From: a virus
Taxonomy: Duplodnaviria > Caudoviricetes
DNA: 44,071 bases
IMG/VR virus record: IMGVR_UViG_3300032233_001236
Location: 1 to 44,071 of that record
Reading direction: 5' to 3' (one strand)
Numbering within the stretch: position 1 is the first letter of the stretch; the number at the start of each line of letters is the position of its first letter. The notes under the pieces are model-generated. The model saw only the letters and a program-made list of their open reading frames with translations. It made no database searches and was not told where the DNA came from. A program made the translations under genes and the position numbers. Of this stretch, positions 1,055 through 41,759 are shown in pieces.

Positions 1055-2656
1055 ATGAACGTACAACAATTACTCGAATCATCAAACCAATACAAGAATG
1101 TAATGGATGATGCTCAAAAATTGTCGGCTAAATGGACTAAATCCGGCCTTTTGGAAGGAATTAAGTCTACAACTGACAAAAACACAATGTCAATGTTGCT
1201 TGAAAACCAAGCTAAACAATTGATCTCTGAAGCTTCTCAAACAGGTACTCAAGCAGGTGGTGCTGGTGCATACAGCGGCGAAAGCTGGTCTGGTGTTGCT
1301 TTGCCATTGGTTCGCCGTGTATTCGGTGAAATCGCTGCTAAAGAATTCGTTAGTGTACAACCAATGAACTTACCTTCTGGTCTTGTATTCTATCTTGATT
1401 TCAAATATGGTACCACTTCTGCTCCATTTGCTAATGGTGGTTCTCTCTATGGTGCTAATGCTTCTAACAACGTAACTGATATCAACTCAGCTTCATTATA
1501 TGGTGCTGGTAAGTTTGGTTATTCAATCAATCAATACTCTGCTTCTGCTGCTGCTGTAACTAGCTCTGCTGCATGGGCTGATTTTAACTTTGATTCTAAC
1601 TATTCTGCTTCTTATGGTACTTTCAAGAAAGTTAACGTTGCTCTTCCTTCTAACGCTGATCCACTTGCAGTTCGTGCTTTCATCATTACCTCTGGTTCTA
1701 TTGGTGTTGCTCAAAACTTACAAGCATTCACTACAATTAATGCTGCCTTCACTACAGCTTCATTTATGGTAACTGCTTCTGTAATCGATGGCGGTGCTGC
1801 TGCGGGTGTATTGTCTGGTGGTGTAATATTATACTATGATGTAGCTCCAACTGCTACTAGCCGTGGTGATTTTGAAGATGGTCAGCCTAAAACTAACGCT
1901 AATACAACTATCGCTATCCCTGAAATCAACGTTCAGTTGAAATCTGAAGCAATCGTTGCTAAAACTCGTAAGTTGAAAGCACAATGGACTCCGGAATTTG
2001 CTCAAGATCTTAACGCTTACCATAGTGTTGATGCTGAAGCTGAATTGACTGGTATCTTGTCTCAATACATCTCTATGGAAATCGACCTCGAAATCCTTGA
2101 TATGTTAATTCAGAATGCTTACACAACTGAAAGGTGGTCTGCCGTTAATAACATAGCTTTAGATGCTGTTGGTGCTTCTTCAAACCTCGGATTTTATAAC
2201 ACACAAGGTGGTTGGTTCCAAACCCTCGGTACTAAGTTACAGAAGGTTTCTAACATTATCCATCAGTTAACCCTCCGTGGTGGTGCTAACTTCCTCGTTA
2301 CTTCTCCAACCGTATCTACAATCCTCGAATCAATCCCTGGATTTGCTGCTGATGGTGATGGCGATAAGTTGCAGTACAACTTCGGTATCCAAAAGATCGG
2401 TTCTCTTAACAGTCGTTACAAGGTTTACAAAAACCCTTACATGACCGAGAACGTTATCTTGATGGGTTACAAAGGTGCTCAATTCCTTGAGTGTGGTGCT
2501 GTATTTGCTCCATATGTTCCATTGATCATGACTCCATTGCTTTACGATCCTAACACCTTCACTCCTAGAAAAGGATTGATGACTAGGTACGCGAAGAAGA
2601 TGATTCGTCCCGATTATTATGGTAAGATTTATGTTGCTGGTTTGAATACTCTTTAG
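1055..2656 (+). CDS. gp23: Major capsid protein, T4 gp23-like
   Basis: Typical gp23 motifs: LLENQ, PLVRR, VSVQPMNLPSGLVFYL, AKTRKLKAQWTPEFAQDLNAYH, EIDLEIL, YVPL, FTPRKGLMTRY. Codon usage suggests high expression. Confidence 0.97.
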   Translation: MNVQQLLESSNQYKNVMDDAQKLSAKWTKSGLLEGIKSTTDKNTMSMLLENQAKQLISEASQTGTQAGGAGAYSGESWSGVALPLVRRVFGEIAAKEFVSVQPMNLPSGLVFYLDFKYGTTSAPFANGGSLYGANASNNVTDINSASLYGAGKFGYSINQYSASAAAVTSSAAWADFNFDSNYSASYGTFKKVNVALPSNADPLAVRAFIITSGSIGVAQNLQAFTTINAAFTTASFMVTASVIDGGAAAGVLSGGVILYYDVAPTATSRGDFEDGQPKTNANTTIAIPEINVQLKSEAIVAKTRKLKAQWTPEFAQDLNAYHSVDAEAELTGILSQYISMEIDLEILDMLIQNAYTTERWSAVNNIALDAVGASSNLGFYNTQGGWFQTLGTKLQKVSNIIHQLTLRGGANFLVTSPTVSTILESIPGFAADGDGDKLQYNFGIQKIGSLNSRYKVYKNPYMTENVILMGYKGAQFLECGAVFAPYVPLIMTPLLYDPNTFTPRKGLMTRYAKKMIRPDYYGKIYVAGLNTL

Positions 2657-2698
2657 TCTAGTATAACATACTTAACCCCGTAAGGTTAAAAAGAAAAT

Positions 2699-2728
2699 GG
2701 CCGGACTTTGCAGTCCGGCCTTTCTTTC
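2699..2728 (+). terminator. Rho-independent terminator after the capsid gene
   Basis: Perfect 9-bp stem GGCCGGACT-ttgc-AGTCCGGCC followed by TTTCTTTC. Confidence 0.85.
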
Positions 2729-2730
2729 GT

Positions 2731-2738
2731 ATATTTAT
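2731..2738 (+). promoter_or_regulatory. Putative late promoter ATATTTAT (first of 16 copies)
   Basis: Copies at 2731, 3293, 4002, 8573, 14031, 16424, 18789, 25507, 26533, 27541, 29339, 29919, 30002, 31044, 32940 and 41002, all at gene boundaries and all in this orientation. Confidence 0.75.
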
Positions 2739-2744
2739 ACACGT

Positions 2745-3293: not shown

Positions 3294-3322
3294 TATTTAT
3301 ATAAAACAAACACACATCGTTT

Positions 3323-4032: not shown

Positions 4033-5655
4033 ATGAGCGCAAAAGCAATAAATCTAAAAAGACTGTGGGATGAATATTACGGTGATACATCGTATTTAAA
4101 TCCTGTTAAATGTAATACTCCATTTGAGTATTATACTAATGATCCTGAATTCGTTCGTGATGCTAAAAGCTGCACACGCTTTGTAGCACAGCGTTTAGGC
4201 GCTAGTGGTTTAGGTCTTACTCAATTAAATATTAGTGATCTTACTGTATATGCTGCTTTTGAAGAAGCAGTTACTACATATGGTAATTTAGTTTATCAAT
4301 ACAAAATTAGAGATCAATTTATTAACATTGAAGGATCAGATGCTGCTCCTTTCAATAATAATACTGTTACTTTTGTTAATAGTATTGATATTAACTCTCC
4401 AGTAACTTGGTCTGCTGCTAGGTTAGCTACGTATGCTGATATTAATTACGATGCACATTTTTCTCAATCAATTGTTAATGGAGGTGTATATGTAATATCT
4501 GCTTCTGTAAATAATTTTGTGTTACCTAATATTGATTATGTAAAGTCAATTACATTAGCTACAGAATTTGTAACAGTAAATACAGGATTAACTGTTGATT
4601 TAAGTACATATGTTTATAATCAATTAAATAGAACCGGAGGTCCAACAAGTGCCTCTGTTATTACAGCAGGTAATAGTCATGTTTACTTATTTACTACTAG
4701 CCCACAAATAGCAGGAGGAAATGCAATATTCGGAACTGGATCTATACCAACAGTTTATATTCAAGATAGCTTAGAACCTGAATTAAATAATAAGTTAATT
4801 ACTAATAACCTTGCTAATTTAACTACTACTATAGCAGACGATTATGCTTCTGAGGCAGGTATTGGTGGTAACTTTAATGTAATGACAGGTTCCATAGAAA
4901 TGAAAAATGGAACCCAAAACTATGATTTAAACGCTTGGGCTGCTATTTCTGCATCATTAGATGCTGGTGATAGAGTTGAAATTAGAAGAGTATTTTATGA
5001 AGAACCACCCGCAATCGTTCGTTACTTTGACCCATATGCAGGTACAGGTACTGGTATACAATCATTATTGGAAACTTTTGGATTTGGTCAATTTTCTCCT
5101 GGTATTAACTTCTTATTAATGCCAATTAACTTTGACGTTCAAAAAATTCAAGCAATTGAATTTAATGATCAGATCAGAAAAGCAGCGTTTTCATTTAATC
5201 TAGTAAACAATCAACTAAAAATATTCCCTATTCCTGATAGAGATAAAAGATTATTTTTTGAATATGTTAAAATAAGTGAAAAATATAACCCAGTAAAAGA
5301 TACTAGAACAAATCTTGTTACTGATATAATGAATGCTCCTTTTAGAAATCCAATCTATTCTAAAATTAATACTGTAGGTAGAACTTGGATTTTTAAATAT
5401 ACTTTAGCATTATCTCGTGAAATTGAAGCACACATCCGTATTCAATTTGCTAATGTTAATGTACAAGGTGTAGGTTCACTTCAAGGATCTGAGTTAGTAG
5501 CTGATGCTAGAACAGAAAAAGATCAATTGATAACAGAATTAAAGGAAATGTTAAATGAAACATCACGTAAAGGTCAATTAGAGCGTAAACAACTCGAAGC
5601 TAGCTTTATGAGAGATACATTACAACAAATACCCTTACCAATTTATATATTCTAA
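4033..5655 (+). CDS. Neck/head-completion protein (gp13-like) with a Ser/Thr-rich insertion
   Basis: Position after the capsid gene; RLG...QLNISD...YAAFEEAV, NQLKIFPIP, WIFKYTLAL, L.GSELV.DARTEK motifs resemble gp13-type adaptors. Confidence 0.7.
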   Translation: MSAKAINLKRLWDEYYGDTSYLNPVKCNTPFEYYTNDPEFVRDAKSCTRFVAQRLGASGLGLTQLNISDLTVYAAFEEAVTTYGNLVYQYKIRDQFINIEGSDAAPFNNNTVTFVNSIDINSPVTWSAARLATYADINYDAHFSQSIVNGGVYVISASVNNFVLPNIDYVKSITLATEFVTVNTGLTVDLSTYVYNQLNRTGGPTSASVITAGNSHVYLFTTSPQIAGGNAIFGTGSIPTVYIQDSLEPELNNKLITNNLANLTTTIADDYASEAGIGGNFNVMTGSIEMKNGTQNYDLNAWAAISASLDAGDRVEIRRVFYEEPPAIVRYFDPYAGTGTGIQSLLETFGFGQFSPGINFLLMPINFDVQKIQAIEFNDQIRKAAFSFNLVNNQLKIFPIPDRDKRLFFEYVKISEKYNPVKDTRTNLVTDIMNAPFRNPIYSKINTVGRTWIFKYTLALSREIEAHIRIQFANVNVQGVGSLQGSELVADARTEKDQLITELKEMLNETSRKGQLERKQLEASFMRDTLQQIPLPIYIF

Positions 5656-8252: not shown

Positions 8253-8540
8253 ATGGCACGACTAAAATTAAAGCAAGTTCTATCAAATCTGCATTACGAT
8301 GCACAGAACGACCAATTAATTCTAAGCGGGTCTAAAATTCCAACTGCTCTTCTAAACCCAGAAGATGCAGACATTAATTGGGATCAAGCTTTTGGAGATT
8401 GGGAGGGTACTAGAAGAGGAATACCAGACTTTGTAATTTATGGGGAAACTTTTGTTACTTCTAGCGCTTATTTAACAGGATCGTTAACTATAAAAGGTAA
8501 TTTAACGGTAAGTGGATCATTCCAAACAAGTTCAATCTAA
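8253..8540 (+). CDS. Small virion/fibre-associated protein
   Basis: Likely start is ATG 8253 (MARLKLKQ), just after the gp15-like stop, rather than the upstream start at 8235; C-terminal TGSLTIKGNLTVSGS fibre-type strands. Confidence 0.6.
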   Translation: MARLKLKQVLSNLHYDAQNDQLILSGSKIPTALLNPEDADINWDQAFGDWEGTRRGIPDFVIYGETFVTSSAYLTGSLTIKGNLTVSGSFQTSSI

Positions 8541-8602: not shown

Positions 8603-11600
8603 ATGGCATCATTAACTGGACAAAAGATAAAAGATACATATAAGTCGTTATTAAAATTAAATGATAACGGACAAATAAGTTCTAATTTTAAAAATATATC
8701 TGATGGATCAGGAAGCGCTACTGGACTTTATTTAAAAAGTGATGGAGTAGAAGTTAGTGGATCTTTTGTAGTATCCGGATCTTTAGAAGTATCTGGATCT
8801 ATTTTTATAACTGAAATTTACGGTAATTTATACGGAACCGCTAGTTACGCAATTACAGCTAGTCGAGCTATCACATCATCTTTCTCGCAAACCGCTTCAT
8901 TTGCTCCCAATTATACTACTTTAGTTGGATTTAATTCTTTCACATCTAGCTATAAAGCAGACAGTGGTTCTTTTGATCAAAGGACTGATTTGCTAGAAGC
9001 CGCAATGTCTGGATCTAAAAGACTTTATGTATCTCCTGAAGGATTAGATTCAAATGACGGTACAGAGCCACATAAACCCTTTAAAACTATTAAAGCTGCT
9101 GTAGATAGTTTAGGAGCAAAAAGTCCATATAACGTAAAAAGATATACAATATTTGTTGGATCTGGAGACTATACCGAGCAGAATCCTATCGTAGTTCCAC
9201 CTGGAGTAGCAATAGTTGGAGATAACTTACGTACAGTAAGGTTAACAGCCGCTAATCCAACAAAAGACTATTTTCATGTTTATGAATCTAGCTATTTTTA
9301 CGGACTTAGATTTTTAAATTTAAAGCATCCCGCTTTCTGTTTTTCTTTCCCTTGCTCTACAGCTACAGCTACCATATCAGGGGGACAAGTAACCGGACTT
9401 AATCTTATACACTCTAGCACTGGATACACTGATGGAGTAAATCAGAATATAGACATATTAATAGAAGAACCAGACGCAGCAGGAACTGCTGCAACTGCAG
9501 TAGCAACAATATCTGGAGGAGTAATAACCTCATTCACTATTACAAGCGGAGGATCTGGGTACGTTTTAGGAGAAAAACCACTAGTATCTATTCCGATTGC
9601 TGCTTCTATAAGACCTTTTGTTGCAACTTCTCCCTACATTCAGAACTGCTCCTCAATCACAGGTCCATTTGATACTTCTGGAAATCAAATTTCAGTACTT
9701 ACTCCGCTCCCTTACGATACAAGTAATGTTGATGAGCAAGGTGCTGGTGGAGGAATAAGAATAGATGGAAATCTAACAACTACAACGACTCCATTAAGAT
9801 CGATGGTAGCGGACTCATTTACTCAAGTTAACCAAGGGGGACCTGGTCACTTAGTAATTAATAGGGGATACGCTCAGTTTGTATCTTGCTTCACCACTTT
9901 TTGTACTTATGGTTTTAAAACCGCAGCTGGTGGATTTGCAAACGTATCAAACTCTGTAATTGACTTTGGAAAGTACGGATTAGTTTCTAAAACCTATTAC
10001 CCAGTAGCTTATAATACTGGGTCTTCACTAGAAACTAAAACTTCATCTGTAAGTGGATTTGTTATAGATGAAAATGGAGCTGGATATACTGGATCAATAG
10101 CTGGAGTAACTATTTCTGGTGGTGGTGCCTCAGTAAATGCAACAGCTCAAGCAAGTGTAAATGCAAATGGATCAATAAATGAAATAATATTACTTACCTC
10201 AGGTAGTGGGTATACAGATCAACCTAATGTAGTAATTGCCGCTCCAACTGGAGTTGGAGGAATTCAAGCTACAACTGTAGCAGGAAAAGCCAACATTACA
10301 GGAGTTTCTGAAATGTTAATTAGTTTAGTTAGTGGATCTAGAAGTGTAGATATAAGCTCAAATATGAGACTTAACGGCACTAACTATCTTATCACAGGGG
10401 TTGCTGCTGTAAGTGGACAACCTTCACAAAAAAGAATAACTACCTATCCTTCTCCTTCAAGTATCACAACTGGAAATGTAGTAAATTTCTATGATTTATC
10501 TAATATATCTACTGGAGGTTTAGTTAATGAATATGTTGGTTCTGGAGTAACTTACAACGCATTACCTCAATACGGTGGAATTCCAATAAAACAAAGAGAA
10601 GTTACTCAAATAGCCCCAGGTAAAGTATTTTATGTTACTATTGATAATATAGGTAATTTAACTATTGGAAGTTTCTTTGCTGTTAATCAACTAACCGGTG
10701 AAGTAACAATCAACGCAAATTCATTTAACCTATCAGGATTAAATGCAATAGGACCATTTAAAAGAAATGGAGTTCCTGTTGGAGTAGTACTTCAAGAGGT
10801 AAGTAACAACACAGCTTTAATAAACTCTCAAGGAATTTATGGTGAAGACACAGCACCAACACAATATGCAGTTCAACAATACGTGTCTGTAATAAGTTCT
10901 TCATTATCTTCTAGAATATTACAAAATAGCTCAAGTATAAGTACACTTTCAGCTTCTTATGAAAATTTTAGACTTGTATATAATACGGGGTCATTTACTG
11001 GTTCATTTAGAGGTAACTTTACTGGTAGTTTTACTGGATCTTTAAGTAATCTAAAGGGAAAAATTCAATACATCCCAGCTTTTGCTTCTGTAGATACTTT
11101 AGTTACTAGCTCTATGTATCAAATATACCCACAGAGCATAGCAATCAATCAAGAAGCAATAACCACTGCTGCTCCTGAAGCATTGTATGTATGGCAAGCT
11201 AGCACTTCTTCATTTAATGTAATAAGCGGTAAAGGTAATTTAAATAACTACTTACAGCTCAATATACAAAATACAAATCAAGGAGTAAGCGCATCGTCAG
11301 ATGTAGTTGCAACCGCAAATAACGGAGACGAAACTACGAATTACATAGACATGGGTATTAACGGAGGAAATTTCGTTGGTCCTATTGGCGCAGCTAATGA
11401 TGCTTATCTTTACTCAGCAGGAAGGCATTTACATATAGGTAATGTTTCAAACTATCCGGTTCAAATATTTGCAGGAGGATTTGATACAGATGCTAATAGA
11501 AAAGCAGTATTTAATCCTAGTGGAGCTCATGAAATAACAGGATCTTTAAGAATAACCGGATCATTAACAGTTAGCCACGGAATAACTGGAAGTTTATTTG

Positions 11601-14014
11601 GAACTGCGAGTAATGCAGTTTCTTCCTCATATGCTCTCTCAGCTTCTCAAGCTCAAAATACTACATTATTTGACGGAAGAAGCAGACAAACATTCGCTAC
11701 TACTGGATCTAACTCTTTCTTAGGAACTCAAACAATAACAGGAAGCGTTAGTATTTCAGGATCCACTACTCAAATTGGTAATAATACTCTTCTTGGAACA
11801 ACTCTATTATCAGGTAGTATAACTATTTCAGGATCATTAGGATCTACTATTCCAAGTGTACAAATTTATGGTGACATTAGACAAGCTGGTTACCACAGAT
11901 TCGATCCAGTAACAACAAATATAGATACAAGTATATCTGCTTCTTACATTTATGTTTCTGGCTCTACGAATGACTTATATTTTTCTCAAAATGGATCAGG
12001 ATATAGTAACGTAACACGTCTTCGTTGGTTAGAAGGTAATCTATACACTGGATTGTTAAATGGAGGTGTGATTGGATCATCATCATCCACAGTTTATACA
12101 GTATCAAGTGGTTCTGGTATTATAGTAGATTTAAATGCGTCTCTAAGCACCAATCCATATCCAATTGTAAAGTACATAAATTGGAATGCACTATCTGCTA
12201 GTATTGCTCCACAAACGGGATCGTATGATCAAACTTTTGTAGGTATTGATAATACGGGTAATATATACGCACAAGGAACTCCGTTTATTGCTGATCAATT
12301 TGATACTTTAATTAATGTAGGGATTGTACTTCATCAAAATCGTTCCACAATTAATGCAGTTAAGACACAACCTGGTGTAGCATATGGAGCAGTACAAAGA
12401 AATAATATATTTACTAAAGCATTTGGACCATTAAAACTTTCTGGATTTACTTTAGCAGCTAGTGGATCCTCCACGGGAAGTTTAGTAGTAGGTAGTGGAA
12501 CCGCCTATTCAGACGGGGCATATTACACAGCAAACCCAGATAATCCAAGTTATGTAATAGACAATGGAACTACTACTTCAAAAATATTTAGATATAGACA
12601 ATCTGGATCTCAATGGGTTTATGATACAAACGCAGGAGCAGGCTATGCAGTAATAGACCCAGCAAACTATTCAAATAATGGAGTCTTAACTTCTGTTGGA
12701 TCAGGAAACTTTTCTATACAAAGAGTTTTCTGGTTCCCTAATTCAGTAGCAAAAGCGATAGTAGTTTATTACGGAAATGCTGTATACACTACTTTAGCAA
12801 ATGCAATTGCAAATGTTAATGTAGAATCTTTTGTTGAAGCACCAAATACAGCAGCTAATGCAATATATCTAGGAGCTATTTGTATCTCAGGAGCTAATAA
12901 TGCATCACTTCAAACACCAGCTGACTGTACAATCTTGCCTTCAGGCCTATTTAGGTCTGTTGGAGGATCAGGCGGTGGTGGTTCTACAATCACAACTACT
13001 TTAGCTGGACTTTCAGATGTATCTATAACCGCTCCTACAAATCAACAACCTTTTGCATATAATACTACTTCGGGTAAATGGCAAAATCAATCCACAATCA
13101 CAGCTACTTTAATTGGTAATGCTTCCACAGCAACTACTGCCTCTTACGCACTTACAGCTTCCTTCGCTTTAAATGGCGGCGGTGGTGGTTCTGGAGCAGG
13201 ATTTCCATTCTCTGGATCTGCAGTAATTACTGGAAGTTTATTAGTTTCTTCAAGTTTAAGTGTAATAGGAACCCAAACAATAACAGGAAGTAATGGTAGA
13301 TTAATTTATACAGGAACTACTCCTGGAGCATATCCTACATTAGCAGAAGTACACGCAAACAATGATTATCCTTGGCTGCATAGGTTCTATAACGATACAT
13401 TCTCAACTTCAAGTGCTATAATGGCATATTTTGGTCAGAATGATGGTAGATTTGTATTTCATAACGAATCAACACGTAGTATAGGATTACAAGTAAATGG
13501 ATATAATGCTGAAAATGGATTATTAGTTTATTCGAATAAAGTTGCTTTTGTTAACAATGTTGAAGTAACTGGTTCATTAAATGTAGTTGGAGGAATAACA
13601 GGATCTTTATATGGTACTGCTAGCTGGGCTCAAAATGCATTAACTGCTTCTTATGCTAATAATGCTATTAGTGCTTCATATGCAGACACATTTAGTATAA
13701 AAGAGACTATAACTTCTTATGCTAAAGTAAATTCATCTATAGTAGGATCTAATAATTTATTCACTTCAGCTACTGGAAGCTACACTGCAGGATTTTTAAA
13801 ATATACATTATATAATGGAGCCAATGCCAGATCTGGAGAAATATTTGCAGTGTGGAATGCCGGAAGCACTCAATATACAGATGTATCTACTTTTGATATT
13901 GGGAATACTTCTCAAGCTACTTTCTCTGTAGCAATAGTAAGTTCACAAGTTCAATTTAATGCAGTAACAGCTAACTCTGGATGGACAATAAAAAGTATTG
14001 TGACTTATATATAA
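8603..14014 (+). CDS. Large fibre/spike protein (1803 aa) with a pectin-lyase-like beta-helix region
   Basis: YVSPEG.DSNDG....PFKTIKAA and TIFVGSGDYTE.NP...GVAIVGDNLR (beta-helix lead-in), GSGY..P.V.I repeats, many ITGSL/VSGS and TASYA repeats. Confidence 0.75.
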   Translation: MASLTGQKIKDTYKSLLKLNDNGQISSNFKNISDGSGSATGLYLKSDGVEVSGSFVVSGSLEVSGSIFITEIYGNLYGTASYAITASRAITSSFSQTASFAPNYTTLVGFNSFTSSYKADSGSFDQRTDLLEAAMSGSKRLYVSPEGLDSNDGTEPHKPFKTIKAAVDSLGAKSPYNVKRYTIFVGSGDYTEQNPIVVPPGVAIVGDNLRTVRLTAANPTKDYFHVYESSYFYGLRFLNLKHPAFCFSFPCSTATATISGGQVTGLNLIHSSTGYTDGVNQNIDILIEEPDAAGTAATAVATISGGVITSFTITSGGSGYVLGEKPLVSIPIAASIRPFVATSPYIQNCSSITGPFDTSGNQISVLTPLPYDTSNVDEQGAGGGIRIDGNLTTTTTPLRSMVADSFTQVNQGGPGHLVINRGYAQFVSCFTTFCTYGFKTAAGGFANVSNSVIDFGKYGLVSKTYYPVAYNTGSSLETKTSSVSGFVIDENGAGYTGSIAGVTISGGGASVNATAQASVNANGSINEIILLTSGSGYTDQPNVVIAAPTGVGGIQATTVAGKANITGVSEMLISLVSGSRSVDISSNMRLNGTNYLITGVAAVSGQPSQKRITTYPSPSSITTGNVVNFYDLSNISTGGLVNEYVGSGVTYNALPQYGGIPIKQREVTQIAPGKVFYVTIDNIGNLTIGSFFAVNQLTGEVTINANSFNLSGLNAIGPFKRNGVPVGVVLQEVSNNTALINSQGIYGEDTAPTQYAVQQYVSVISSSLSSRILQNSSSISTLSASYENFRLVYNTGSFTGSFRGNFTGSFTGSLSNLKGKIQYIPAFASVDTLVTSSMYQIYPQSIAINQEAITTAAPEALYVWQASTSSFNVISGKGNLNNYLQLNIQNTNQGVSASSDVVATANNGDETTNYIDMGINGGNFVGPIGAANDAYLYSAGRHLHIGNVSNYPVQIFAGGFDTDANRKAVFNPSGAHEITGSLRITGSLTVSHGITGSLFGTASNAVSSSYALSASQAQNTTLFDGRSRQTFATTGSNSFLGTQTITGSVSISGSTTQIGNNTLLGTTLLSGSITISGSLGSTIPSVQIYGDIRQAGYHRFDPVTTNIDTSISASYIYVSGSTNDLYFSQNGSGYSNVTRLRWLEGNLYTGLLNGGVIGSSSSTVYTVSSGSGIIVDLNASLSTNPYPIVKYINWNALSASIAPQTGSYDQTFVGIDNTGNIYAQGTPFIADQFDTLINVGIVLHQNRSTINAVKTQPGVAYGAVQRNNIFTKAFGPLKLSGFTLAASGSSTGSLVVGSGTAYSDGAYYTANPDNPSYVIDNGTTTSKIFRYRQSGSQWVYDTNAGAGYAVIDPANYSNNGVLTSVGSGNFSIQRVFWFPNSVAKAIVVYYGNAVYTTLANAIANVNVESFVEAPNTAANAIYLGAICISGANNASLQTPADCTILPSGLFRSVGGSGGGGSTITTTLAGLSDVSITAPTNQQPFAYNTTSGKWQNQSTITATLIGNASTATTASYALTASFALNGGGGGSGAGFPFSGSAVITGSLLVSSSLSVIGTQTITGSNGRLIYTGTTPGAYPTLAEVHANNDYPWLHRFYNDTFSTSSAIMAYFGQNDGRFVFHNESTRSIGLQVNGYNAENGLLVYSNKVAFVNNVEVTGSLNVVGGITGSLYGTASWAQNALTASYANNAISASYADTFSIKETITSYAKVNSSIVGSNNLFTSATGSYTAGFLKYTLYNGANARSGEIFAVWNAGSTQYTDVSTFDIGNTSQATFSVAIVSSQVQFNAVTANSGWTIKSIVTYI

Positions 14015-14090: not shown

Positions 14091-14345
14091 ATGAGTCTAG
14101 AATTTATAGCCCGGAACGGACTAATAGCCCAAAACAATTCTATAGTAACAGGATCTTTAACCGTAACAAACGGAATCACAGGATCGTTTTTCGGTACAGC
14201 ATCAAATGCAGTATCTTCTTCCTACTCTCTATCAAGTTCATTTGCCGTAAGCTCTTCTTACGCGCTTAGCTCTTCTTACGCAGTAACTTCTTCTTTTTCA
14301 ATAACTGGATCTTTTGCTTTAAACGTTGATGGAGGCACATACTAA
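14091..14345 (+). CDS. Mini fibre/adaptor protein (84 aa)
   Basis: N-terminal EFIARNGL, SSS[YF]xx hexapeptide repeats, C-terminal DGGTY. Confidence 0.75.
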   Translation: MSLEFIARNGLIAQNNSIVTGSLTVTNGITGSFFGTASNAVSSSYSLSSSFAVSSSYALSSSYAVTSSFSITGSFALNVDGGTY

Positions 14346-15396: not shown

Positions 15397-15420
15397 ACTG
15401 AGCCAATTCCTATTATCTAA
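15202..15420 (+). CDS. 72-aa partner/chaperone of the receptor-binding head, copy 1
   Basis: Nearly identical to 18473..18691; both copies directly follow a head paralogue. Confidence 0.75.
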   Translation: MIGYKLTPEQKEDIQGKEYTPYQIFNCVQDINEIWFTFLTDEDKRSIIGTQYEWLLLCPQEEYVPTEPIPII

Positions 15421-17238: not shown

Positions 17239-17598
17239 ATGCCTATTTCAAAAGTATTATTAAGTGGATCAACTGGCGGTATGCCAATAAAAATTGCCGC
17301 TACTGGCTCAGTTGGAACTACAATCCACGCAACGGGAACAAGCTCAACTACTATAGATGAAGTATGGTTGTACGCAACAAACACATCAGCAGCATCAGTT
17401 AATTTAACGATTGAGTTTGGTTCTACTACAGCACCAGATCAAAATATTATAGTAGCAATTCCATCAAAAAGTGGTTTAAGCATCTGTACTGCTGGGTTAG
17501 TATTAACCGGTACTGGAGCCGCTGCAAGAACCATTACAGCCTTTGCAGGAACTACAAACGTAATAAACATTATAGGATATATTAATAGAATTTCATAA
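17239..17598 (+). CDS. Small beta-rich adaptor protein (119 aa)
   Basis: SKVLLSGSTGG.PIKIAAT...GTTIHAT...DEVWLYATN...GYINRIS; coupled to the next gene by TAATG. Confidence 0.7.
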   Translation: MPISKVLLSGSTGGMPIKIAATGSVGTTIHATGTSSTTIDEVWLYATNTSAASVNLTIEFGSTTAPDQNIIVAIPSKSGLSICTAGLVLTGTGAAARTITAFAGTTNVINIIGYINRIS

Positions 17599-27592: not shown

Positions 27593-29323
27593 ATGGCAGA
27601 AAAAATTCTATCTCCCGGTGTATTCCAAAATGAATCCGATCAATCGTTGGTTCAAAGAGGTATTCAAGGGACATCAACCGCAATCGTTGGACCTACAGTA
27701 TTAGGCCAACCATTAGTTCCAACTTATGTTACCTCATACAGTGAGTTCGTATCTAAGTTTGGTGAAACTTTTAAAAGTGGTAGTTATTACTACGAATATT
27801 TTACATCATTAGCTGCTAAAGATTTCTTTAACAACGGTGGTCAAACATTGTTAGTTACTAAAATAATTAGTGGTAGTGCAAATATTAGTACTTATGCTAA
27901 TTCAACTGTAACTGCTTTTACAAATAGTGGTCCTTCAACTTCATCATTTGCTCTTGAAACTATAGCTTGGGGTGATGTTATGAATAATACTTCTAGTATG
28001 AGCGCCGGTGCTTTAGCAAGTGGTAGTGCACTTAATGTTCGTTGGGAAATTACAAATGTAAATACTGGAAGTGGTGTATTTAGTTTAGCAGTTCGTGCTG
28101 GTAATGACAACAATGCTCAACCTAACTATCTTGAAACATGGCCTAACTTATCATTAGACCCAGCTCAACCAAACTATATCTCTCGTGTAATCGGTGATAT
28201 TAAACCAGTTTATAGAGTAGATACTGATAATACCCCTTACATTGATTATACTGGATCTTATGCTAATGCCTCTCAGTTTATTCGTGTTAGATCAATAACT
28301 ACTCCCCAAGTAGATTCTATTGATAACAATGGTAATTTTAAAGCAGCACAATATAGTGGTAGTTTACCAGCATTAGGAAGTGGATCTTACGGTGGTTCAT
28401 TTAGTGGTGGAGTTGCCGCAACTAACCTTGCTCAGTTAATGAACGAAAATATCACAGCTACAAACGTTCAAGGATTTGCTGTTGCTGATTATCAAGCTGC
28501 TTTTAATTTGTTATCAAATAGTGATGAATATCAATTCAATGTATTATTAGCACCTGGTGTAGGTTTAGATAATGCTGCTTCTACAACTATGATTTCTACT
28601 TGCGAAGGTAGAGGTGATGCTATTGCAGTAGTAGATACTAAATTATATGGTGCTGTTGTATCTAGTGCTGCTACTGCTGCTGCTGGACAATCAAGCAACT
28701 ACGCAGCCACATACTGGCCTTGGATTCAATTATATTCAACTGCATTAGGTAAAGCTGTATGGGCTCCTGCCTCTACAGTAATGGGTGGTGTATTCGCATT
28801 TAACGACCAAGTAGGTGCTGAATGGTTTGCTCCTGCAGGATTGAATCGTGGAGGTGTACCCTCAGTATTAAAAGCTGAACGTAAATTAACTCAAAACGAT
28901 CGTGATGTATTATACCAATCAAATGTTAACCCATTAGCTACATTCCCTGGAGAGGGTGTTGTAGTGTTTGGTCAGAAAACATTACAGCGCAGAGCAACTG
29001 CTCTCGACCGCGTAAACGTTCGTCGTTTGTTGATTGCTCTTAAAGGATATATTGGTCAAGTTGCTAATAACTTAGTATTTGAACAAAATACCAACGTGAC
29101 TCGCAATCGTTTCTTAGCTCAAGTTAACCCATATCTTGAATCAGTAGTACAACGTCAAGGCTTATATGCTTATAAAGTTGTAATGGATGATACAAATAAT
29201 ACTCCTGATGTAATTGATAGAAATCAGTTAGTAGGTCAGATTTATATTCAACCTACCAAAACCGCTGAATTTATCATATTGAATTTCAACGTATTACCAA
29301 CTGGCGCTACATTCCCTGCATAG
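27593..29323 (+). CDS. gp18: Contractile tail sheath protein
   Basis: SPGV...E.D, AIVGP...G, YAATYWPW, WFAPAGLNRG, NPLATFPG, FGQKTL, RVNVRRL, FEQN, PTKTAEFI motifs. Confidence 0.97.
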   Translation: MAEKILSPGVFQNESDQSLVQRGIQGTSTAIVGPTVLGQPLVPTYVTSYSEFVSKFGETFKSGSYYYEYFTSLAAKDFFNNGGQTLLVTKIISGSANISTYANSTVTAFTNSGPSTSSFALETIAWGDVMNNTSSMSAGALASGSALNVRWEITNVNTGSGVFSLAVRAGNDNNAQPNYLETWPNLSLDPAQPNYISRVIGDIKPVYRVDTDNTPYIDYTGSYANASQFIRVRSITTPQVDSIDNNGNFKAAQYSGSLPALGSGSYGGSFSGGVAATNLAQLMNENITATNVQGFAVADYQAAFNLLSNSDEYQFNVLLAPGVGLDNAASTTMISTCEGRGDAIAVVDTKLYGAVVSSAATAAAGQSSNYAATYWPWIQLYSTALGKAVWAPASTVMGGVFAFNDQVGAEWFAPAGLNRGGVPSVLKAERKLTQNDRDVLYQSNVNPLATFPGEGVVVFGQKTLQRRATALDRVNVRRLLIALKGYIGQVANNLVFEQNTNVTRNRFLAQVNPYLESVVQRQGLYAYKVVMDDTNNTPDVIDRNQLVGQIYIQPTKTAEFIILNFNVLPTGATFPA

Positions 29324-29370: not shown

Positions 29371-29859
29371 ATGCCTGTATTAGACGCAAATGAAATAATG
29401 TTCACAGCATTTGAACCCAAAGTTCCAAATCGCTTTATCATGTATATTGATGGTATTCCATCATACTTGATTAAGAAAGCGTCGGCTCCTGGGTTTGAAG
29501 CAAATATGATCAAACTTGATCACATCAACGTTTACCGTAAAGTTAAAGGTAAAGTTGAATGGAACGACATGACTTTAGAATTATACGATCCCGTAACCCC
29601 ATCAGGCGCACAAGCCGTAATGGAATGGGCTCGTTTAGCACACGAATCAGTAACTGGTCGTGATGGATATTCCGACTTTTATAAGAAAGATTTAACATTA
29701 GATATTTTAGGACCTGTAGGTGACGTAGTAGGTGAGTGGATTATTAAAGGTGCTTATTGTAAAACAGCTACCTTTGGAGAATATGATTGGTCTTCAGGCG
29801 ACGCTGCAATCAGTTTATCTGTAACCGTTGCTATGGATTACTGCGTCCTCAATTTTTGA
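29371..29859 (+). CDS. gp19: Tail tube protein
   Basis: FEPK..NRF, GK.EW..M...YDP, EW......TG, YKKD.TL..LGP.G.VV.EW.I.G; follows the sheath gene. Confidence 0.92.
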   Translation: MPVLDANEIMFTAFEPKVPNRFIMYIDGIPSYLIKKASAPGFEANMIKLDHINVYRKVKGKVEWNDMTLELYDPVTPSGAQAVMEWARLAHESVTGRDGYSDFYKKDLTLDILGPVGDVVGEWIIKGAYCKTATFGEYDWSSGDAAISLSVTVAMDYCVLNF

Positions 29860-29882
29860 TCCTTAATTGTATTTATTTTAAG

Positions 29883-29911
29883 AGACGTTTGCTTCGGCAA
29901 GCGTCTTTTTT
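29883..29911 (+). terminator. Rho-independent terminator with a C(UUCG)G tetraloop
   Basis: AGACGTTTGC-ttcg-GCAAGCGTCT followed by a T-run. Confidence 0.9.
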
Positions 29912-29966
29912 GTTTGTAATATTTATTGCAAACGATGAAAAATAAGTCATTCGTATTTATAAAGAT

Positions 29967-29998
29967 AGGTATCTGCTTTGGTAGATGCCTTTTTTCTT
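29967..29998 (+). terminator. Second terminator-like hairpin
   Basis: AGGTATCTGC-tttg-GTAGATGCCT (two G-U pairs) followed by TTTTTCTT. Confidence 0.7.
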
Positions 29999-30031
29999 CG
30001 TATATTTATATATACACAAATAAAATAGTTT

Positions 30032-30790
30032 ATGGCAGAATTAAAAATCCCAACAGAAACAGTTACATTACCCTCAAAAGGCTTACTGTATCCTGAGACA
30101 TCTCCACTCGCTAAAGGAGAAATTGAAATGAAGTATATGACTGCTAAGGAAGAAGATATTCTTACCAACAGCAATTATATCAAAAACGGAACCGTAATTG
30201 ATAAATTACTACAAGCCTTGATTATTACACCTATTGATTATAATGAATTATTGATTGGAGATAAAAATGCAATAATCATTGCAGCTCGCGTTTTAGGTTA
30301 TGGTAAAGATTATTCATTTAGATATTTAAATTCAAAAGGACAAGAAGTAGAAACAACAGTTGATCTATCTAAATTAGAAGATAAAGAACTAAATACTAGT
30401 TTATTCACAAAAGGAGTTAATGATTTTACTTTTAATTTACCCAAATCCGGTAATGTAATAACATTTAAATTGTTAACACACGGTGATGAAAAGAAAATTG
30501 AATCTGAAATTAAAGGATTACAAAAAGTAAATCCAAATGGCTCATACGATGTTACAACTCGTCTTAAATATATGATCACTTCAATTAATGGTGATCGTGA
30601 TATAAAATCAATTCGTGACTTTATCGATACATCATTACTAGCCCCAGATGCTAGAGCATTACGCGAATACTATGCATCAGTACAACCTGATATTGATATG
30701 AAATTTATACCGGATGATGAAAATTATACAGGGGAGGGTATAAACATTCCTGTTTCTCTTAACTTTTTTTGGCCTGACTCCGGAGTATAG
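30032..30790 (+). CDS. gp26-like baseplate hub / tail assembly chaperone
   Basis: PTE.V.LPSKG..Y, KYMTAKEEDIL, L.IGDK.AI...AR..GYG, C-terminal FFWP; lies between tube and tape measure. Confidence 0.8.
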   Translation: MAELKIPTETVTLPSKGLLYPETSPLAKGEIEMKYMTAKEEDILTNSNYIKNGTVIDKLLQALIITPIDYNELLIGDKNAIIIAARVLGYGKDYSFRYLNSKGQEVETTVDLSKLEDKELNTSLFTKGVNDFTFNLPKSGNVITFKLLTHGDEKKIESEIKGLQKVNPNGSYDVTTRLKYMITSINGDRDIKSIRDFIDTSLLAPDARALREYYASVQPDIDMKFIPDDENYTGEGINIPVSLNFFWPDSGV

Positions 30791-31034
30791 ACTCTACCTA
30801 TTTAAACAAATACATGAAATAGTATTTAATGGTCAAGGAGGTTATGATTGGGAAACTGTTTATAATATGCCTATTTGGTTGCGTCGTTTTACATTTGAAA
30901 CTTTAAAAGAACACTATGAAAAACAACGTGAAGCTGCTGAAAAGCAACAAAATATGCTTAAAAATAATAATAAAGGTGAAATATCACGACCAAACGTAAC
31001 TCCAACATATACAACCAAGGCGCCTAAAAAATAG
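30771..31034 (+). CDS. Out-of-frame extension (gp51-like), probably reached by frameshifting; absent from the ORF track
   Basis: +1 frame reads GLTPEYRLYLFKQIHEIVFNGQGGYDWETVYNMPIWLRRFTFETLKEHYEKQREAAEKQQ...KAPKK*. It is open from 30744, with no ATG until 30867. Confidence 0.75.
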   Translation, partial: GLTPEYRLYLFKQIHEIVFNGQGGYDWETVYNMPIWLRRFTFETLKEHYEKQREAAEKQQNMLKNNNKGEISRPNVTPTYTTKAPKK

Positions 31035-31041
31035 GCGCCTT
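31017..31041 (+). terminator. Perfect 10-bp hairpin over the extension's stop codon
   Basis: AAGGCGCCTA-aaaaa-TAGGCGCCTT; weak U-tract, immediately followed by ATATTTAT. Confidence 0.55.
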
Positions 31042-31069
31042 CAATATTTATATAATGTAATATTAAATT

Positions 31070-32932
31070 ATGACTTTAGAAGAACTAGAAAAACTCGCAG
31101 AAGACTTAGGTGATATACGAAGTGTCACTAGTGATATAGGTAATTCATTAAAAGAAGCCTTTAAATCAGATGCTTTAAGATCTCTTGGAAATGAATTAAG
31201 ATCAAGTTTATCTTCTTTTAATAAGATAGATAGAGTTTTAGGAAGTACGGCTTCTACATTAGATAAAGTTACAAAAAAAGAAATAAGCAGAAAAGATTTA
31301 CAAAAAGAACTAAATAAACTTACATCTTTAGAAAGTGATATTCTAGCAGAAATACAGAAAGTTGAAGCTAAAAAACTTTATTTACAAGGAGATCAATTCA
31401 ACGCAGCTAATGAATTATCTCAACAACTTACAGATCAGTTAACAATACTTCAACAACAAAGACAAGAAGTTAATAACGCAACTAGAGGGTATACAGGACA
31501 AAAAAATATATTAGATACTATAAAAGATAAAGTTGGGGATGTATCTAAAAAACTTACCTGGGCTTATTTTATTCAATTAGCAATAGATGCTGGATATAAA
31601 TTTAGTAAGATATCAACTGAAATAGGTAAAAACTTAGGTTATGGTGCTGATAATGCAAATAGAACAGCAGCTAATCTAGTTAAAGTAGCCCAAGATTCCT
31701 CCAACATCAATGTTACTCTCCAGAATGCTGCTGAGGCAATGAATGAAATAAGTACCTCTACAGGATATGTAGCAGAGTACTCAGCAGATGCTTTGGAAAC
31801 TCAAATAATGTTAACTAAACAATTTGGTTTACAAGCAGAGGAAGCAGCTGGAATTTATAAATTATCGGTATTAACAGGAAAGTCATCCAAAGCAGTTAAT
31901 GATGCTATGGTTAGCGCTTATGTTGCTACTAGAAACCAACTTAGAGTAGGTGTTCCGTTTAAAGCAGCAATAGCAGAAGCAGCTAAAATATCAGGTCAAT
32001 TAGCAGCTAATTTACAAAACAATCCTGGACAAATTGTTAAAGCAGTAGTACAAGCAAAAGCATTAGGTACTACTTTAGAGCAAGTTAAAGGTCAAGGTGA
32101 ATCGCTTCTTAATTTTGAATCATCAATTGAAAATGAATTAAAAGCTGAATTATTAACTGGAAAGCAGCTAAATTTAGAAAGAGCTAGAGCTGCAGCTTTA
32201 ACTGGCGATCAAATAGTATTAGCTGAAGAATTAAATAAAAATGTAGGTTCATTAGAGGAATTCCAAAAAATGAACGTCATACAGCAAAAAACATTAGCTG
32301 AAGCTGTAGGGTTAACTGCTGATCAATTAGCTGAACAGTTAAGAAGACAAAAATTAGCTGTTGAAAGTGGAAAATCATTAGCTCAAATAACAGAAGAAGA
32401 AGCTAAACAAGCACAAGAAAGACAAAATGCTCAAGATAAATTTAATTTAGCTATTACTAAACTACAAGATTTAGTAGGTAATCTAGTAGCTGGTCCTTTT
32501 GGACAATTATTAGATATGGTATCTAGCATAGCTACTATTATATTAAAAATAATTCAACCTTTTGTAAGTGTAGCTGGAGCAATATTAAATCCTATACTAG
32601 GAGGTATATCAGGGGCTCTTGGAGCGATGACAGGTGATGATATAGTAGGATATGGTGCTCGTACATTAATCACTCCTCAAGGTGCAGTAGCATTAAATAA
32701 TAATGACACAGTAATAGCTGGTACTAACTTATCAAAAGGGGATGATGTAATATCACTTCCTAAAGGATCATTAAATTTAGGAGGAAGTGGTGGAAGTGAT
32801 GTAGTAGATGCTATAAAAGATTTAAAACAAACATTAGTAAATCGCCCAGCACAAGCCTTTATACAAGGTGAAAATGCATTTGTATCAAGAGTAACCACTA
32901 AAGGAGTACAAAATACATACAAATCAGCATAA
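31070..32932 (+). CDS. Tape measure protein
   Basis: 620 aa, Ala/Gln/Leu-rich and helical, LLNFESSIE.EL.AELLTGK.LNLERAR motif; position after tube and chaperone. Confidence 0.8.
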   Translation: MTLEELEKLAEDLGDIRSVTSDIGNSLKEAFKSDALRSLGNELRSSLSSFNKIDRVLGSTASTLDKVTKKEISRKDLQKELNKLTSLESDILAEIQKVEAKKLYLQGDQFNAANELSQQLTDQLTILQQQRQEVNNATRGYTGQKNILDTIKDKVGDVSKKLTWAYFIQLAIDAGYKFSKISTEIGKNLGYGADNANRTAANLVKVAQDSSNINVTLQNAAEAMNEISTSTGYVAEYSADALETQIMLTKQFGLQAEEAAGIYKLSVLTGKSSKAVNDAMVSAYVATRNQLRVGVPFKAAIAEAAKISGQLAANLQNNPGQIVKAVVQAKALGTTLEQVKGQGESLLNFESSIENELKAELLTGKQLNLERARAAALTGDQIVLAEELNKNVGSLEEFQKMNVIQQKTLAEAVGLTADQLAEQLRRQKLAVESGKSLAQITEEEAKQAQERQNAQDKFNLAITKLQDLVGNLVAGPFGQLLDMVSSIATIILKIIQPFVSVAGAILNPILGGISGALGAMTGDDIVGYGARTLITPQGAVALNNNDTVIAGTNLSKGDDVISLPKGSLNLGGSGGSDVVDAIKDLKQTLVNRPAQAFIQGENAFVSRVTTKGVQNTYKSA

Positions 32933-39238: not shown

Positions 39239-39660
39239 GTATAGTACCTAAAAATATTATTATAGAAAACCAATATACTTTAGGAGGAGAATTTCTAGAA
39301 AAAAATACTTCAAAACTATATCAAGGATACTATTGTATAGTAAAAACTAAATATTACACCGAAAAAACCTATCTTTCTACCTCAGTAGAACTAGTTAAAA
39401 TCCCAGAAAAAACTCCCACAACATCATCTTTTAATTCAAATTTTCCTGATAATAGATTTGGAGAAAGATTTTTTGCTAAAAAATTAAATTTTACTCCTAT
39501 TCTTATTAGAGAAGTAAATAAAGAATCCTATTCAAAATTATTATTAGATCCTTTTTATCAAACTATAACTATAAAAGGAACAGAAATATTTTCTGGATCT
39601 AAGATATTAGATCAAGCAGATAAACAAATGCCTGGATTAAAATCTTTTTTAGTAGGCTAA
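39235..39660 (+). CDS. Hypothetical baseplate-region protein
   Basis: ATGA overlap with the hub gene; YT.GGEF......Y.GYY motif. Confidence 0.7.
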   Translation: MSIVPKNIIIENQYTLGGEFLEKNTSKLYQGYYCIVKTKYYTEKTYLSTSVELVKIPEKTPTTSSFNSNFPDNRFGERFFAKKLNFTPILIREVNKESYSKLLLDPFYQTITIKGTEIFSGSKILDQADKQMPGLKSFLVG

Positions 39661-39696
39661 ATTCTTTTATTATATTCAATTCAAAGGTTATGAAAT

Positions 39697-41001
39697 ATGT
39701 TTTACATTATAGAGCGATCAGATCAATTACAACAATTAAATTTATTTGAGGATTGCTTCATTAAGTTTATTCCTAAAAACAATAACTTTCATCCTGCATT
39801 AACATCATTGAGTCTAATTTATATTAGACCAATTAATGGAAAGAAAGGATATGTGTTGTGTTTAGATCATAATGAATCATTTAGTTTAGATCAATCCGAA
39901 GTATTTGGTTGGTTAGTAAACAACACTAATAAATTATGGGTGATAGATAAAAAGGAAGCAATGTATTGGTTTCCTCACCCCAATAAATTATTTGATGTTT
40001 ATCTATTGGAATTTATTAATTTAAGTGAAGCATTATCATCTTCACCCTGTATTGATTATTATTATACTAATCACATTAATTTAGCTAATGTAAATTGCCT
40101 AATTCCAATTAGTAAACATTATGAAGAATGCGAAGCAATATTCAAAGCATCACTCCCAATAATACAAAAATACACATTAACCAATACACAATTCCAATTC
40201 CAGAATTTCAGAACAACTGAAGTGTTCTATCAAATCGAGAAAAACGGCATTAAATTAGATAAAGACTGCTTTATAAACTATTATAAAGGTAAATTACAAC
40301 ATCCCGAATTTAATTTATCTAAGAGCAGAATATATTCTCAATATAATTTATATAATACCACTTCACGCCCATCTAACACATATAACAGCATTAATTTCGC
40401 CGCATTAAATAAAGACGATGGTGAACGTAACTGCTACAAACCCGAAAATGATAAATTCATTGAAATTGACTTTCAGGGGTACCACCCACGTTTAATAGGT
40501 GAAATGATTGGGTTTGAATTTCCTAAAGATCGCAACACATATGAATTGCTAGGTGAATTATTAGATGTATCACAACAAGAAGCTAAAGAATTAACATTTA
40601 AACAATTATATGGTGGTGTGTGGAGCGAATATCAAAATAAACCATTCTTTAAAAACGTAGTAGCGTATGTTGATGATTTATGGGATACATTGCAATATGG
40701 TGGAACTATAACTACTGAAAATAAAATATTTATACGTGATGATCTTGATAAAATGACACCGCATAAATTATTAAATTATGTAGTTCAAAGTAAAGAAACA
40801 TCAACTAACGTTCAATTACTTGAAAGAGTATTTAATTATTTAAAAGACAAAAAAACAAAACTAGTATTATACACATATGATGCTTTCTTATTTGATTATA
40901 ATAAAGAAGATAATAATATAATACAAGAACTAATAAATATACTAGAATATCCTGTAAGCATTAAACAAGGAACATCATATCACGGTTTAACTAAAATATA
41001 A
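39697..41001 (+). CDS. Compact family-A DNA polymerase-like protein
   Basis: IEKNGI, YN.Y.TT.RPSN, motif A IEIDFQGYHPRLI, motif B AKELTFKQLYG, NY.VQ, motif C LYTYDAFLFD. Confidence 0.8.
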   Translation: MFYIIERSDQLQQLNLFEDCFIKFIPKNNNFHPALTSLSLIYIRPINGKKGYVLCLDHNESFSLDQSEVFGWLVNNTNKLWVIDKKEAMYWFPHPNKLFDVYLLEFINLSEALSSSPCIDYYYTNHINLANVNCLIPISKHYEECEAIFKASLPIIQKYTLTNTQFQFQNFRTTEVFYQIEKNGIKLDKDCFINYYKGKLQHPEFNLSKSRIYSQYNLYNTTSRPSNTYNSINFAALNKDDGERNCYKPENDKFIEIDFQGYHPRLIGEMIGFEFPKDRNTYELLGELLDVSQQEAKELTFKQLYGGVWSEYQNKPFFKNVVAYVDDLWDTLQYGGTITTENKIFIRDDLDKMTPHKLLNYVVQSKETSTNVQLLERVFNYLKDKKTKLVLYTYDAFLFDYNKEDNNIIQELINILEYPVSIKQGTSYHGLTKI

Positions 41002-41007
41002 ATATTT

Positions 41008-41424
41008 ATGACAGACAATATATTTTTCGATTTGAACAAGCTATTCTGTACATTTACTACCCCAGACGAATTAGATACGGTTCTTGCCGATATCAATCGC
41101 CGATATACAATAATGTATAACAAAATATTCGTTCTTGAGTCACCTCAAAGCAAAGAATTAATGTGTACATACAATATTGATATGGGCAATGCATCCGACA
41201 GCCCCTTACCTAATACAATATTGCTTCATCGCAAGAAAGAATCAAATACATTATATACAATTAATGCTCTTAATGCATTGATTAGAACATTAAATGAGGG
41301 TATATTAGATACTAGATTTATTGTTAATTGGTCTGATTATAAAAATTGTATATTACTTAATAACGGCCCTGAATTGCGCCGTTTAGATACTGCTATTTAT
41401 AAAATCATAGATCTTAATAAATAA
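41008..41424 (+). CDS. Hypothetical protein (alternative TTG start at 41032)
   Basis: 138-aa ORF, LFCTF...KIFVL...CTYNID...HRKKESNTLYTINALN; coupled to the next gene. Confidence 0.75.
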   Translation: MTDNIFFDLNKLFCTFTTPDELDTVLADINRRYTIMYNKIFVLESPQSKELMCTYNIDMGNASDSPLPNTILLHRKKESNTLYTINALNALIRTLNEGILDTRFIVNWSDYKNCILLNNGPELRRLDTAIYKIIDLNK

Positions 41425-41759
41425 TGGCAACATATACTGCAGCACAACTTTATGGTACTGGATCGATTGGTGAAAACTTATCTGGGTTAAAGACATTTAC
41501 ATTTACTAATCCCAGCGATTCATCATATTTTACTTTGGAAACTATTCCAAATGCAACTGGATCATTTGCTAGTGCTCCTACTAATGCTTTAGGAACATGG
41601 GTTGTATCTGCATCAATGGGTTTTGTATCATCTTCATATGTTGCTTCAGTTGTAGTACAACCTGGTTCATCTGCTTTAACTTTTACTCCTGCCTCTGCTG
41701 TTACTGGTACAACATACCGTTTAAGAGGAACAGGAACTTATAGTTTGACTATTGCTTAA
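41424..41759 (+). CDS. Ser/Thr-rich beta protein, probably a virion component
   Basis: 111 aa with few charged residues; carries TGS, TGS, SAS and SSS motifs like the fibre proteins. Confidence 0.65.
   Translation: MATYTAAQLYGTGSIGENLSGLKTFTFTNPSDSSYFTLETIPNATGSFASAPTNALGTWVVSASMGFVSSSYVASVVVQPGSSALTFTPASAVTGTTYRLRGTGTYSLTIA

Follow-up and report, generated by a model that had tools for sequence, protein, structure and literature searches.

A serine-ending tripeptide in outer virion proteins of Immutovirus-like phages, a candidate acceptor signal for phage-encoded O-glycosylation

Introduction

Why would one short peptide recur in the capsid, neck, sheath and fibre proteins of a single phage and be scarce in its enzymes? 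The question is raised by the IMG/VR virus record IMGVR_UViG_3300032233_001236, a genome fragment of 44,071 nucleotides (the window hereafter). The window carries a block of head, tail and replication genes from a T4-like myophage, among them those for a Gp23 capsid, PhoH, fibres, sheath, tube, hub, SSB and RecA. It is Immutovirus-like, where the genus name denotes a likeness found by sequence comparison. By capsid identity its cultured kin are Flavobacterium phage immuto 2-6A (immuto, 60%), Mel-JY01 (52%) and RM378 (37%), and the capsid of the uncultured LR756508 is 51% identical; by analogy with immuto, whose host is Flavobacterium sp. LMO8, the host of the window phage may belong to the Bacteroidota. 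A first-pass annotation had proposed that a virion-wide [S/T]-[G/A/S]-S motif marks sites of O-glycosylation. Here we propose that the motif, in the narrower form [S/T]-[G/A]-S, fairly probably serves as acceptor signal for an O-glycosylation system that the phages themselves encode, primed by two predicted glycosyltransferases (GTs) of family GT4, GT-A and GT-B ("the pair"), that are found in the relatives.

The motif in the window

Every hand count of the first-pass annotation was reproduced by recounting (capsid, sheath, neck and four small open reading frames, ORFs; Table 1). There were no sites in scaffold, PhoH, tube, SSB or RecA, and one each in the polymerase-like ORF 39697 and the tape measure ORF 31070. 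Residues were then shuffled within blocks of 12, keeping composition. Capsid, sheath and neck together had 21 sites against 7.6 expected, the fibres 134 against 57 and the other virion proteins 49 against 29, with 1 against 3.4 in 11 non-virion proteins, so that the excess in virion proteins survives a composition-matched control. The order of the residues matters (43 TGS against 5 SGT), and no enrichment of [ST][GAS]T was found in the window proteins. At the middle position G was found 90 times (28 expected), A 53 times (24 expected) and S 40 times (34 expected). The motif as originally written stands for its G and A forms, while the S-middle class is barely enriched, and TSS and SSS were rejected as real members. 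The core is [S/T]-[G/A]-S, at about three times the level of local shuffles.

The motif is not virion-wide, as had been claimed. ORFs 7001, 14345, 15439, 17598, 33268 and 35762, several of them presumed outer proteins, are at chance level, and so are the last 800 amino acids (aa) of fibre 18817 (4 sites against 5.5 expected). Repeats spaced by 6 residues hold 61 of the 134 fibre sites, which are therefore not independent, and a hydrophobic residue directly follows 117 of 188 window sites. The general O-glycosylation sequon of the Bacteroidota is D-[ST]-[AILVMT]. This sequon, from which the motif had been said to differ, is not enriched in the window proteins (15 against 14.4 in fibres, 16 against 22.4 in other virion proteins). 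Neither is N-X-S/T (82 against 73 in fibres, p=0.11; 80 against 84 in other virion proteins), reported as the sequon of N-linked glycosylation, for example by HMW1C (PMC8498110). In seven genomes the DNA pattern of the motif appeared 1085 times in frame against 8 and 8 times in the other two forward frames, and synonymous use at motif codons broadly followed the background, with both Ser codon families present. Therefore, selection for the motif acts at the protein level.

A conserved pair of predicted glycosyltransferases

No GT was detected by profile and domain scans of the window proteins, in agreement with the first-pass annotation. The search for GTs in kin that it had suggested was rewarding, since complete relatives carry a conserved pair that tracks the motif. 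In immuto the sugar cluster spans gp90-102 and begins with the GT4 proteins GT-A (gp90) and GT-B (gp91), a zinc-ribbon (Zn-ribbon) protein (gp92) and a GT2 (gp93). The cassette order is GT-A, GT-B, the Zn-ribbon gene, GT2 and then a variable sugar island. The pair is present in all five near-complete relatives chosen by capsid, and also in the cultured immuto, Mel-JY01 and, diverged, RM378. Of 80 GT-B loci, some of them truncated, 79 have an adjoining GT-A, 63 have the Zn-ribbon gene and 62 have GT2, and the genes downstream vary. Both GTs occur in 49 of 55 more distant loci, a count that excludes 7 weak Acidobacteria-type matches. A search of 31 records detected GT-B in 19. Of the virus records with a completeness of 90% or more, 8 of 8 have it; five of these had been picked by capsid and three by GT-B itself. 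Immuto (4 records) and Mel-JY01 were the only ones among 50,697 GenBank phage records with a GT-B match by tblastn; the diverged tandem partner of RM378 was detected only by profile, and a GT2 match was not found in this phage. All strong GTDB matches are on contigs of metagenome-assembled genomes (MAGs), mostly short, and are probably mis-binned phage. The GT-B tree is mostly without resolution.

In two relatives (G001 and G002; G- and L-numbers are our labels for related genomes and loci) the cassette lies roughly 25-35 kb past the exonuclease gene that marks the end of the window. G001 has GT4 matches near 90-97 kb besides the pair at 32-34 kb, so an island may be distant from the core pair, and its loss need not take the pair with it. 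The small Zn-ribbon gene between GT-B and GT2 is gp92 in immuto (L082 41520-41978). The cassette has several variants. In G003 (62690-64218) and Mel-JY01 (83441-84932) two neighbouring ORFs make up GT-A, with the split near the boundary of the Rossmann domains, and extra ORFs of 180-230 aa are inserted among the cassette genes in L121, L156, L174, L188 and L189.

Assignment of the pair to GT4 rests on two Rossmann domains and a PF00534 match. For GT-A this match is over the cut-off, the model has a predicted local distance difference test (pLDDT) score of 88.9 and its structural matches have the GT-B fold. For GT-B the PF00534 match is below the cut-off, and there are matches to phrog_2170 (4.8e-21) and, by profile, to GT-A (96.7%). 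Both GTs keep an E-x7-E pair, which we take to be a catalytic motif, and by which neither would look like the chaperone GtfB of serine-rich repeat protein glycosylation. E297/E305 and R207/K208 are invariant in GT-B, and its sequence suggests an active enzyme. According to a preprint, the DNA of immuto contained by liquid chromatography-mass spectrometry only dA, dC, dT and fdPreQ1 (bioRxiv 2023.04.13.536721), which argues against a DNA-glycosylating role of the phage GTs of the T4 AGT/BGT kind.

The motif excess tracks the pair

We used proteins with at least 16% S+T as a proxy for outer virion proteins, masking S/G/T runs. In these S/T-rich proteins the observed/expected ratio of [ST][GA]S was 2.41-4.12 in the window and eight pair-bearing genomes (Mel-JY01 counted over 100 of 190 kb) and 0.57-1.60 in 10 pair-less controls. 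The controls were T4, PAU, PTm1, HTVC008M, P-SSM2 and crAss001 as whole genomes, 456 of 484 kb of LR756508, and 50 kb each of S-SKS1, S-SCSM1 and S-CBS4; LR756511 was left out of this comparison because it has too little S/T-rich sequence. LR756508 has a lone GT-A, no GT-B and no motif, and a search for relatives of this GT-A found none. S-CBS4 gave a weak GT-A-like match and the other controls, LR756508 apart, none. The sibling [ST][GA]T had a ratio of 1.06 in the pair-bearing group against 1.41 in controls. The controls show a generic turn excess of 1.2-1.4 times for sibling tripeptides, and the pair-bearing group an excess only for the Ser-ending form. At strand corners of the type phi-[ST]-G-x-phi, x was S in 66% and T in 4% of the cases in the pair-bearing group (n=399), against S 16%, T 16%, N 11% and D 9% in controls (n=192). 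The hot-spring phage RM378, with its diverged tandem pair, has the motif in several S/T-rich proteins. Another genome, G029, fits as well, with 2.47 on only 1,161 aa of S/T-rich sequence and 4 sites against 10.4 in low-S/T proteins. The S/G/T low-complexity giants masked from the counts, at 44579-60078 in G001 (2011, 1374 and 1084 aa) and at 2-3052 in Mel-JY01 (L113), resemble serine-rich repeat adhesins.

A sign that the first-pass annotation had not foreseen is the depletion of the motif in proteins with less than 13% S+T, mostly non-virion. In the window and seven pair-bearing genomes they have 70 sites against 113 expected (0.62), and in controls 183 against 175. Taking one protein per family, with RM378 excluded, the counts are 33.6 against 52.0 (p~0.003) in the pair-bearing set and 121 against 119 in controls. 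With the same exclusion, S[GA]S and T[GA]S come second and third in depletion among 81 classes. In each pair-bearing genome where they were found, portal, terminase, tube, hub, GroEL and GT-A are free of sites. With RM378, G027 and G029 added, a rank test over 10 and 11 genomes gave p=0.02. The depletion signal is real but modest, and would suggest that the motif is read in the compartment in which the phage enzymes work.

The capsid insertion across relatives

The seven capsid sites had been placed in one insertion, with none in the core, and this location gains weight from comparison with T4. The insertion is flanked on both sides by a block alignable with T4 gp23, and its place is that of the I domain in the T4 protein, a domain reported to form protrusions on the capsid surface (PMC9546572). 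About 2,700 IMG/VR stretches matched capsid patterns. In a set of 139 distinct related capsids of at least 440 aa, not independent since near-duplicates and paralogues are included, the insertion has 634 sites against 224 expected and the core 33 against 101, and only 9 capsids have 0-1 sites. The sites are spread over 71 alignment columns, exchanging TGS, TAS, SAS and SGS. Because LR756508, L273 and L062 keep the same insertion with zero sites, the insertion fold does not need them. The capsid model is poor overall (pLDDT 60) and reliable for the insertion at 160-265 and parts of the core, with pLDDT of about 75-88 over 160-260; in it, sites are borne by strands, by turns and by the end of a helix, i.e., not by one fold context. 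The RM378 capsid has 1 site, and in both immuto and RM378 the excess is mostly in other S/T-rich proteins.

At the motif-poor loci examined, with a capsid devoid of the motif, neck and fibre mostly retain it. L062, L265, L305, L307 and L308 have capsids with 0-1 sites and the motif in neck and fibre proteins. A search for a pair-less subclade by way of motif-poor marine capsids yielded mostly short contigs. Some loci have a second capsid paralogue directly after the first (L001 4261-5514, L003 11659-13353, L017 11743-13446), with a longer insertion and also 7-8 sites.

Window features carrying the motif

The features of the window are collected in Table 1. In the 1803-aa fibre (8603..14014), aa 141-740 are at chance level and correspond to the part common to cyanophage fibres. 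The Pfam core domains of the sheath (aa 299-567) have zero sites. The DUF7936 protein has 120 close homologues with 3-9 sites each; its homologues in four unrelated phages have 0, 0, 0 and 2, and the one in immuto has 0. ORF 41424 had been listed among the motif-bearing ORFs and does have its four sites, a number that alone is not significant (4 against 1.9, p=0.11). A duplicated gene pair (14345-15420 and 17598-18691), each copy coding for a protein of 281/287 aa and, after it, a near-identical one of 72 aa, flanks other tail genes, and neither copy is motif-enriched.

Table 1. Features of the window and their motif sites (coordinates in nucleotides, nt)
Feature	Position	Strand	Motif sites and remarks
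Gp23-type major capsid protein	1055..2656	+	7 sites, nt 1487-1780
Capsid insertion, aa 119-288	1409-1918	+	all 7 capsid sites; place of T4 I domain
Neck/head-tail adaptor	4033..5655	+	5 sites, nt 4498-4956; weak phrog_211 match
95-aa ORF (ORF 8253)	8253..8540	+	5 sites (0.4 expected)
1803-aa fibre	8603..14014	+	60 sites; dense at aa 1-140 and 741-1803
84-aa ORF	14091..14345	+	9 sites, 8 with 6-residue spacing
258-aa fibre-type protein	16439..17215	+	23 sites; bactofilin-like beta-helix repeats
119-aa phrog_30535 protein	17239..17598	+	3 sites, alone not significant
2093-aa fibre with S74 chaperone	18817..25098	+	42 sites, enriched mainly in N-terminal 460 aa
DUF7936 protein (ORF 25104)	25104..25475	+	7 sites
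Tail sheath	27593..29323	+	9 sites, aa 62-265, nt 27776-28387
Tube, baseplate hub, tape measure	29371..32932	+	0, 0 and 1 sites; internal negative controls
111-aa S/T-rich ORF (ORF 41424)	41424..41759	+	4 sites

Discussion

Those predictions of the O-glycosylation reading that sequences can test came true, though the glycosylation itself we infer, from sequences and predicted structures alone. Several other points weigh against it. The window being a fragment, its own cassette is assumed by analogy with its kin. Most positive genomes belong to one lineage, so that few independent events stand behind the contrast with controls. Control sheaths are also enriched (1.7-2.2 times), and single control fibres reach 28 sites against 8 (S-SKS1) and 18 against 7.5 (S-CBS4). 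The immuto capsid has just 3 sites against about 2 expected. The depletion is not seen in RM378 (1.42) or G027 (1.27), a control (crAss001) is at 0.60, and pooling all pair-bearing sets with RM378, G027 and G029 weakens it to 113 against 153 (0.74). LR756508 has no supported place in the capsid tree, so that its lack of GT-B may or may not be a loss. No structural tie of the pair to protein acceptors appeared among the fold matches of GT-A, where the best solved structure is followed by small-molecule GT4s and the protein O-GT GtfA ranks 49th (Z 19.2). Finally, G027:C1 has the pair and a ratio of just 1.79 overall, its capsid, sheath and baseplate being unenriched. Its core genes are distant (TerL 27%, helicase 23%), the GTs are in-family (45/43/56%) and the cassette adjoins a block of motif-rich fibres, by a regional split made post hoc. 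These features fit either a recent co-transfer of cassette and fibres or a chimeric contig. G027:C1 (L282) is a 248-kb phage contig within a Flavobacteriaceae MAG.

The motif might have a structural role, as a beta-turn or as the corner of a beta-solenoid. Repeat expansion and shared ancestry would then have spread it, and the GT cassette would be an unrelated lineage marker. The 6-residue repeats of the fibres, the hydrophobic residue after most window sites and the generic excess of turn-like tripeptides in controls are all in its favour. However, the folds of the capsid insertion and of DUF7936 both exist without the motif, the corner residue that is S, T, N and D alike in controls is fixed as S in the pair-bearing group, and sites are found in turns as well as in strand and helix-end contexts and, as read from the sequence of G027, in heptad-like repeats. 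A turn does not predict the depletion from enzymes either, which is the line of evidence that it explains worst, and we consider this explanation rather unlikely. Enrichment and avoidance imply no more than a reader of the motif, which could also be another enzyme or chemistry (the GT2 as primer, a host cytoplasmic enzyme, phosphorylation or acylation), with the GT4 pair acting on, e.g., the host envelope. The frequency of GT2 at GT-B loci agrees with this, and a preprint includes the GTs of phages among possible genes for envelope glycans (10.64898/2026.10.24.761521). Against the host-enzyme variant, the Bacteroidota-infecting PTm1 (1.10) and crAss001 (1.02) are without enrichment, and against the GT2 variant, RM378 has motif and pair with no GT2 match; we find this family of explanations unlikely.

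Hydroxyls at i and i+2 lie on one face of a strand, an established geometry, and together with the location of the sites in outer proteins this would suit non-covalent docking or surface chemistry, involving a decoration protein, a chaperone, ice or particles. Ice binding was rejected, as the motif is present in the hot-spring RM378. An enzyme pocket accounts better for lone sites in small proteins and for the strict Ser at position 3, and the motif co-occurs with the GT pair, making docking very unlikely. An effect at the DNA level, by sequence motif or codon bias, has on its side that capsid motif serines use TCN codons in 93% of the cases against 80% elsewhere in the insertion. It is hardly tenable, being largely refuted by the codon and reading-frame counts given above.

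The system proposed here can be compared with some known ones. Freeman et al. in 2023 reportedly described virion glycosylation of mycobacteriophages. For Che8 and other mycobacteriophages, phage GTs are proposed to glycosylate outer virion proteins, and the reported position of the glycans is C-terminal, in capsid and tail tube (PMC12619734, PMC11256854). Like there, the GTs are encoded by the phage genome, here in the relatives. Unlike there, the candidate sites are internal and numerous in each protein, within a short ordered motif and in T4-like contractile-tailed phages, and the tube is spared (0 sites in 8 of 8, a statement about the motif and not about actual glycans). [quoted passage not shown] The likeness consists of a conserved two-gene set, with a putative priming role, variable downstream GTs and Ser-x-Ser spaced acceptors. 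However, DUF1975 was found in neither phage GT (Pfam at E<=0.05 gave only Glycos_transf_1 / Glyco_trans_1_4), both phage GTs keep the glutamate pair and may differ in this from the chaperone GtfB, and the candidate acceptors include folded virion domains besides low-complexity repeats. Close homology to GtfA/GtfB was rejected for lack of DUF1975 and because GtfA is only a distant fold match. The best match of GT-A, in sequence (E 2.9e-14) and among solved structures (Z 32.1, root mean square deviation 3.1, 371 residues aligned), is B736L of chlorovirus NY-2A (PDB 3oy2), reported as a viral GT-B-fold enzyme from a virus with glycosylated capsid (PMC9614988). Identity is 19%, B736L is without an established acceptor and chlorovirus capsid glycans are N-linked. 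The proposed system resembles mycobacteriophage glycosylation and GtfA/GtfB priming and is a member of neither, because it lacks defining features of both. In the literature searched, with most subscription papers and supplements outside the search, a short acceptor motif was reported for no phage, and there was nothing on the present motif or on virion glycosylation in the immuto lineage.

In the mechanism that we propose, GT-A and/or GT-B (the immuto gp90/gp91 family) would add the first sugar to Ser/Thr of the motif in predicted surface-facing virion proteins. The motif itself is confined to the capsid insertion, the neck, the N-terminal half of the sheath, the wedges and the fibres. The acceptor may be the invariant third Ser, which we favour only slightly (about 55:45) over position 1. 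GT2 and the variable sugar-biosynthesis island would extend this sugar into a strain-specific coat that may shield or stabilise the particle. The cassette presumably acts on protein in the cytoplasm, before or during assembly, which would explain why enzymes avoid the motif. A broader picture is possible, which we put forward tentatively: a pathway encoded by a widespread family of aquatic T4-like phages, with GT4 pair priming, a swappable island giving a "serotype" coat, thousands of glycans per particle (7 sites on perhaps several hundred capsid subunits), outer proteins gaining and enzymes losing the sequon, and a cassette mobile together with motif-rich fibres.

Glycosylated phage particles have been reported from a few mycobacteriophages (PMC12619734, PMC11256854). 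The lineage studied here is an abundant aquatic one, and its cultured members immuto 2-6A, Mel-JY01 and RM378 make the O-glycosylation reading directly testable. If it is true, the motif might serve as a compact cytoplasmic O-glycosylation tag, glycosylated phages would be predictable from sequence, and there would be a reason for the retention of a core GT pair next to sugar islands that vary.

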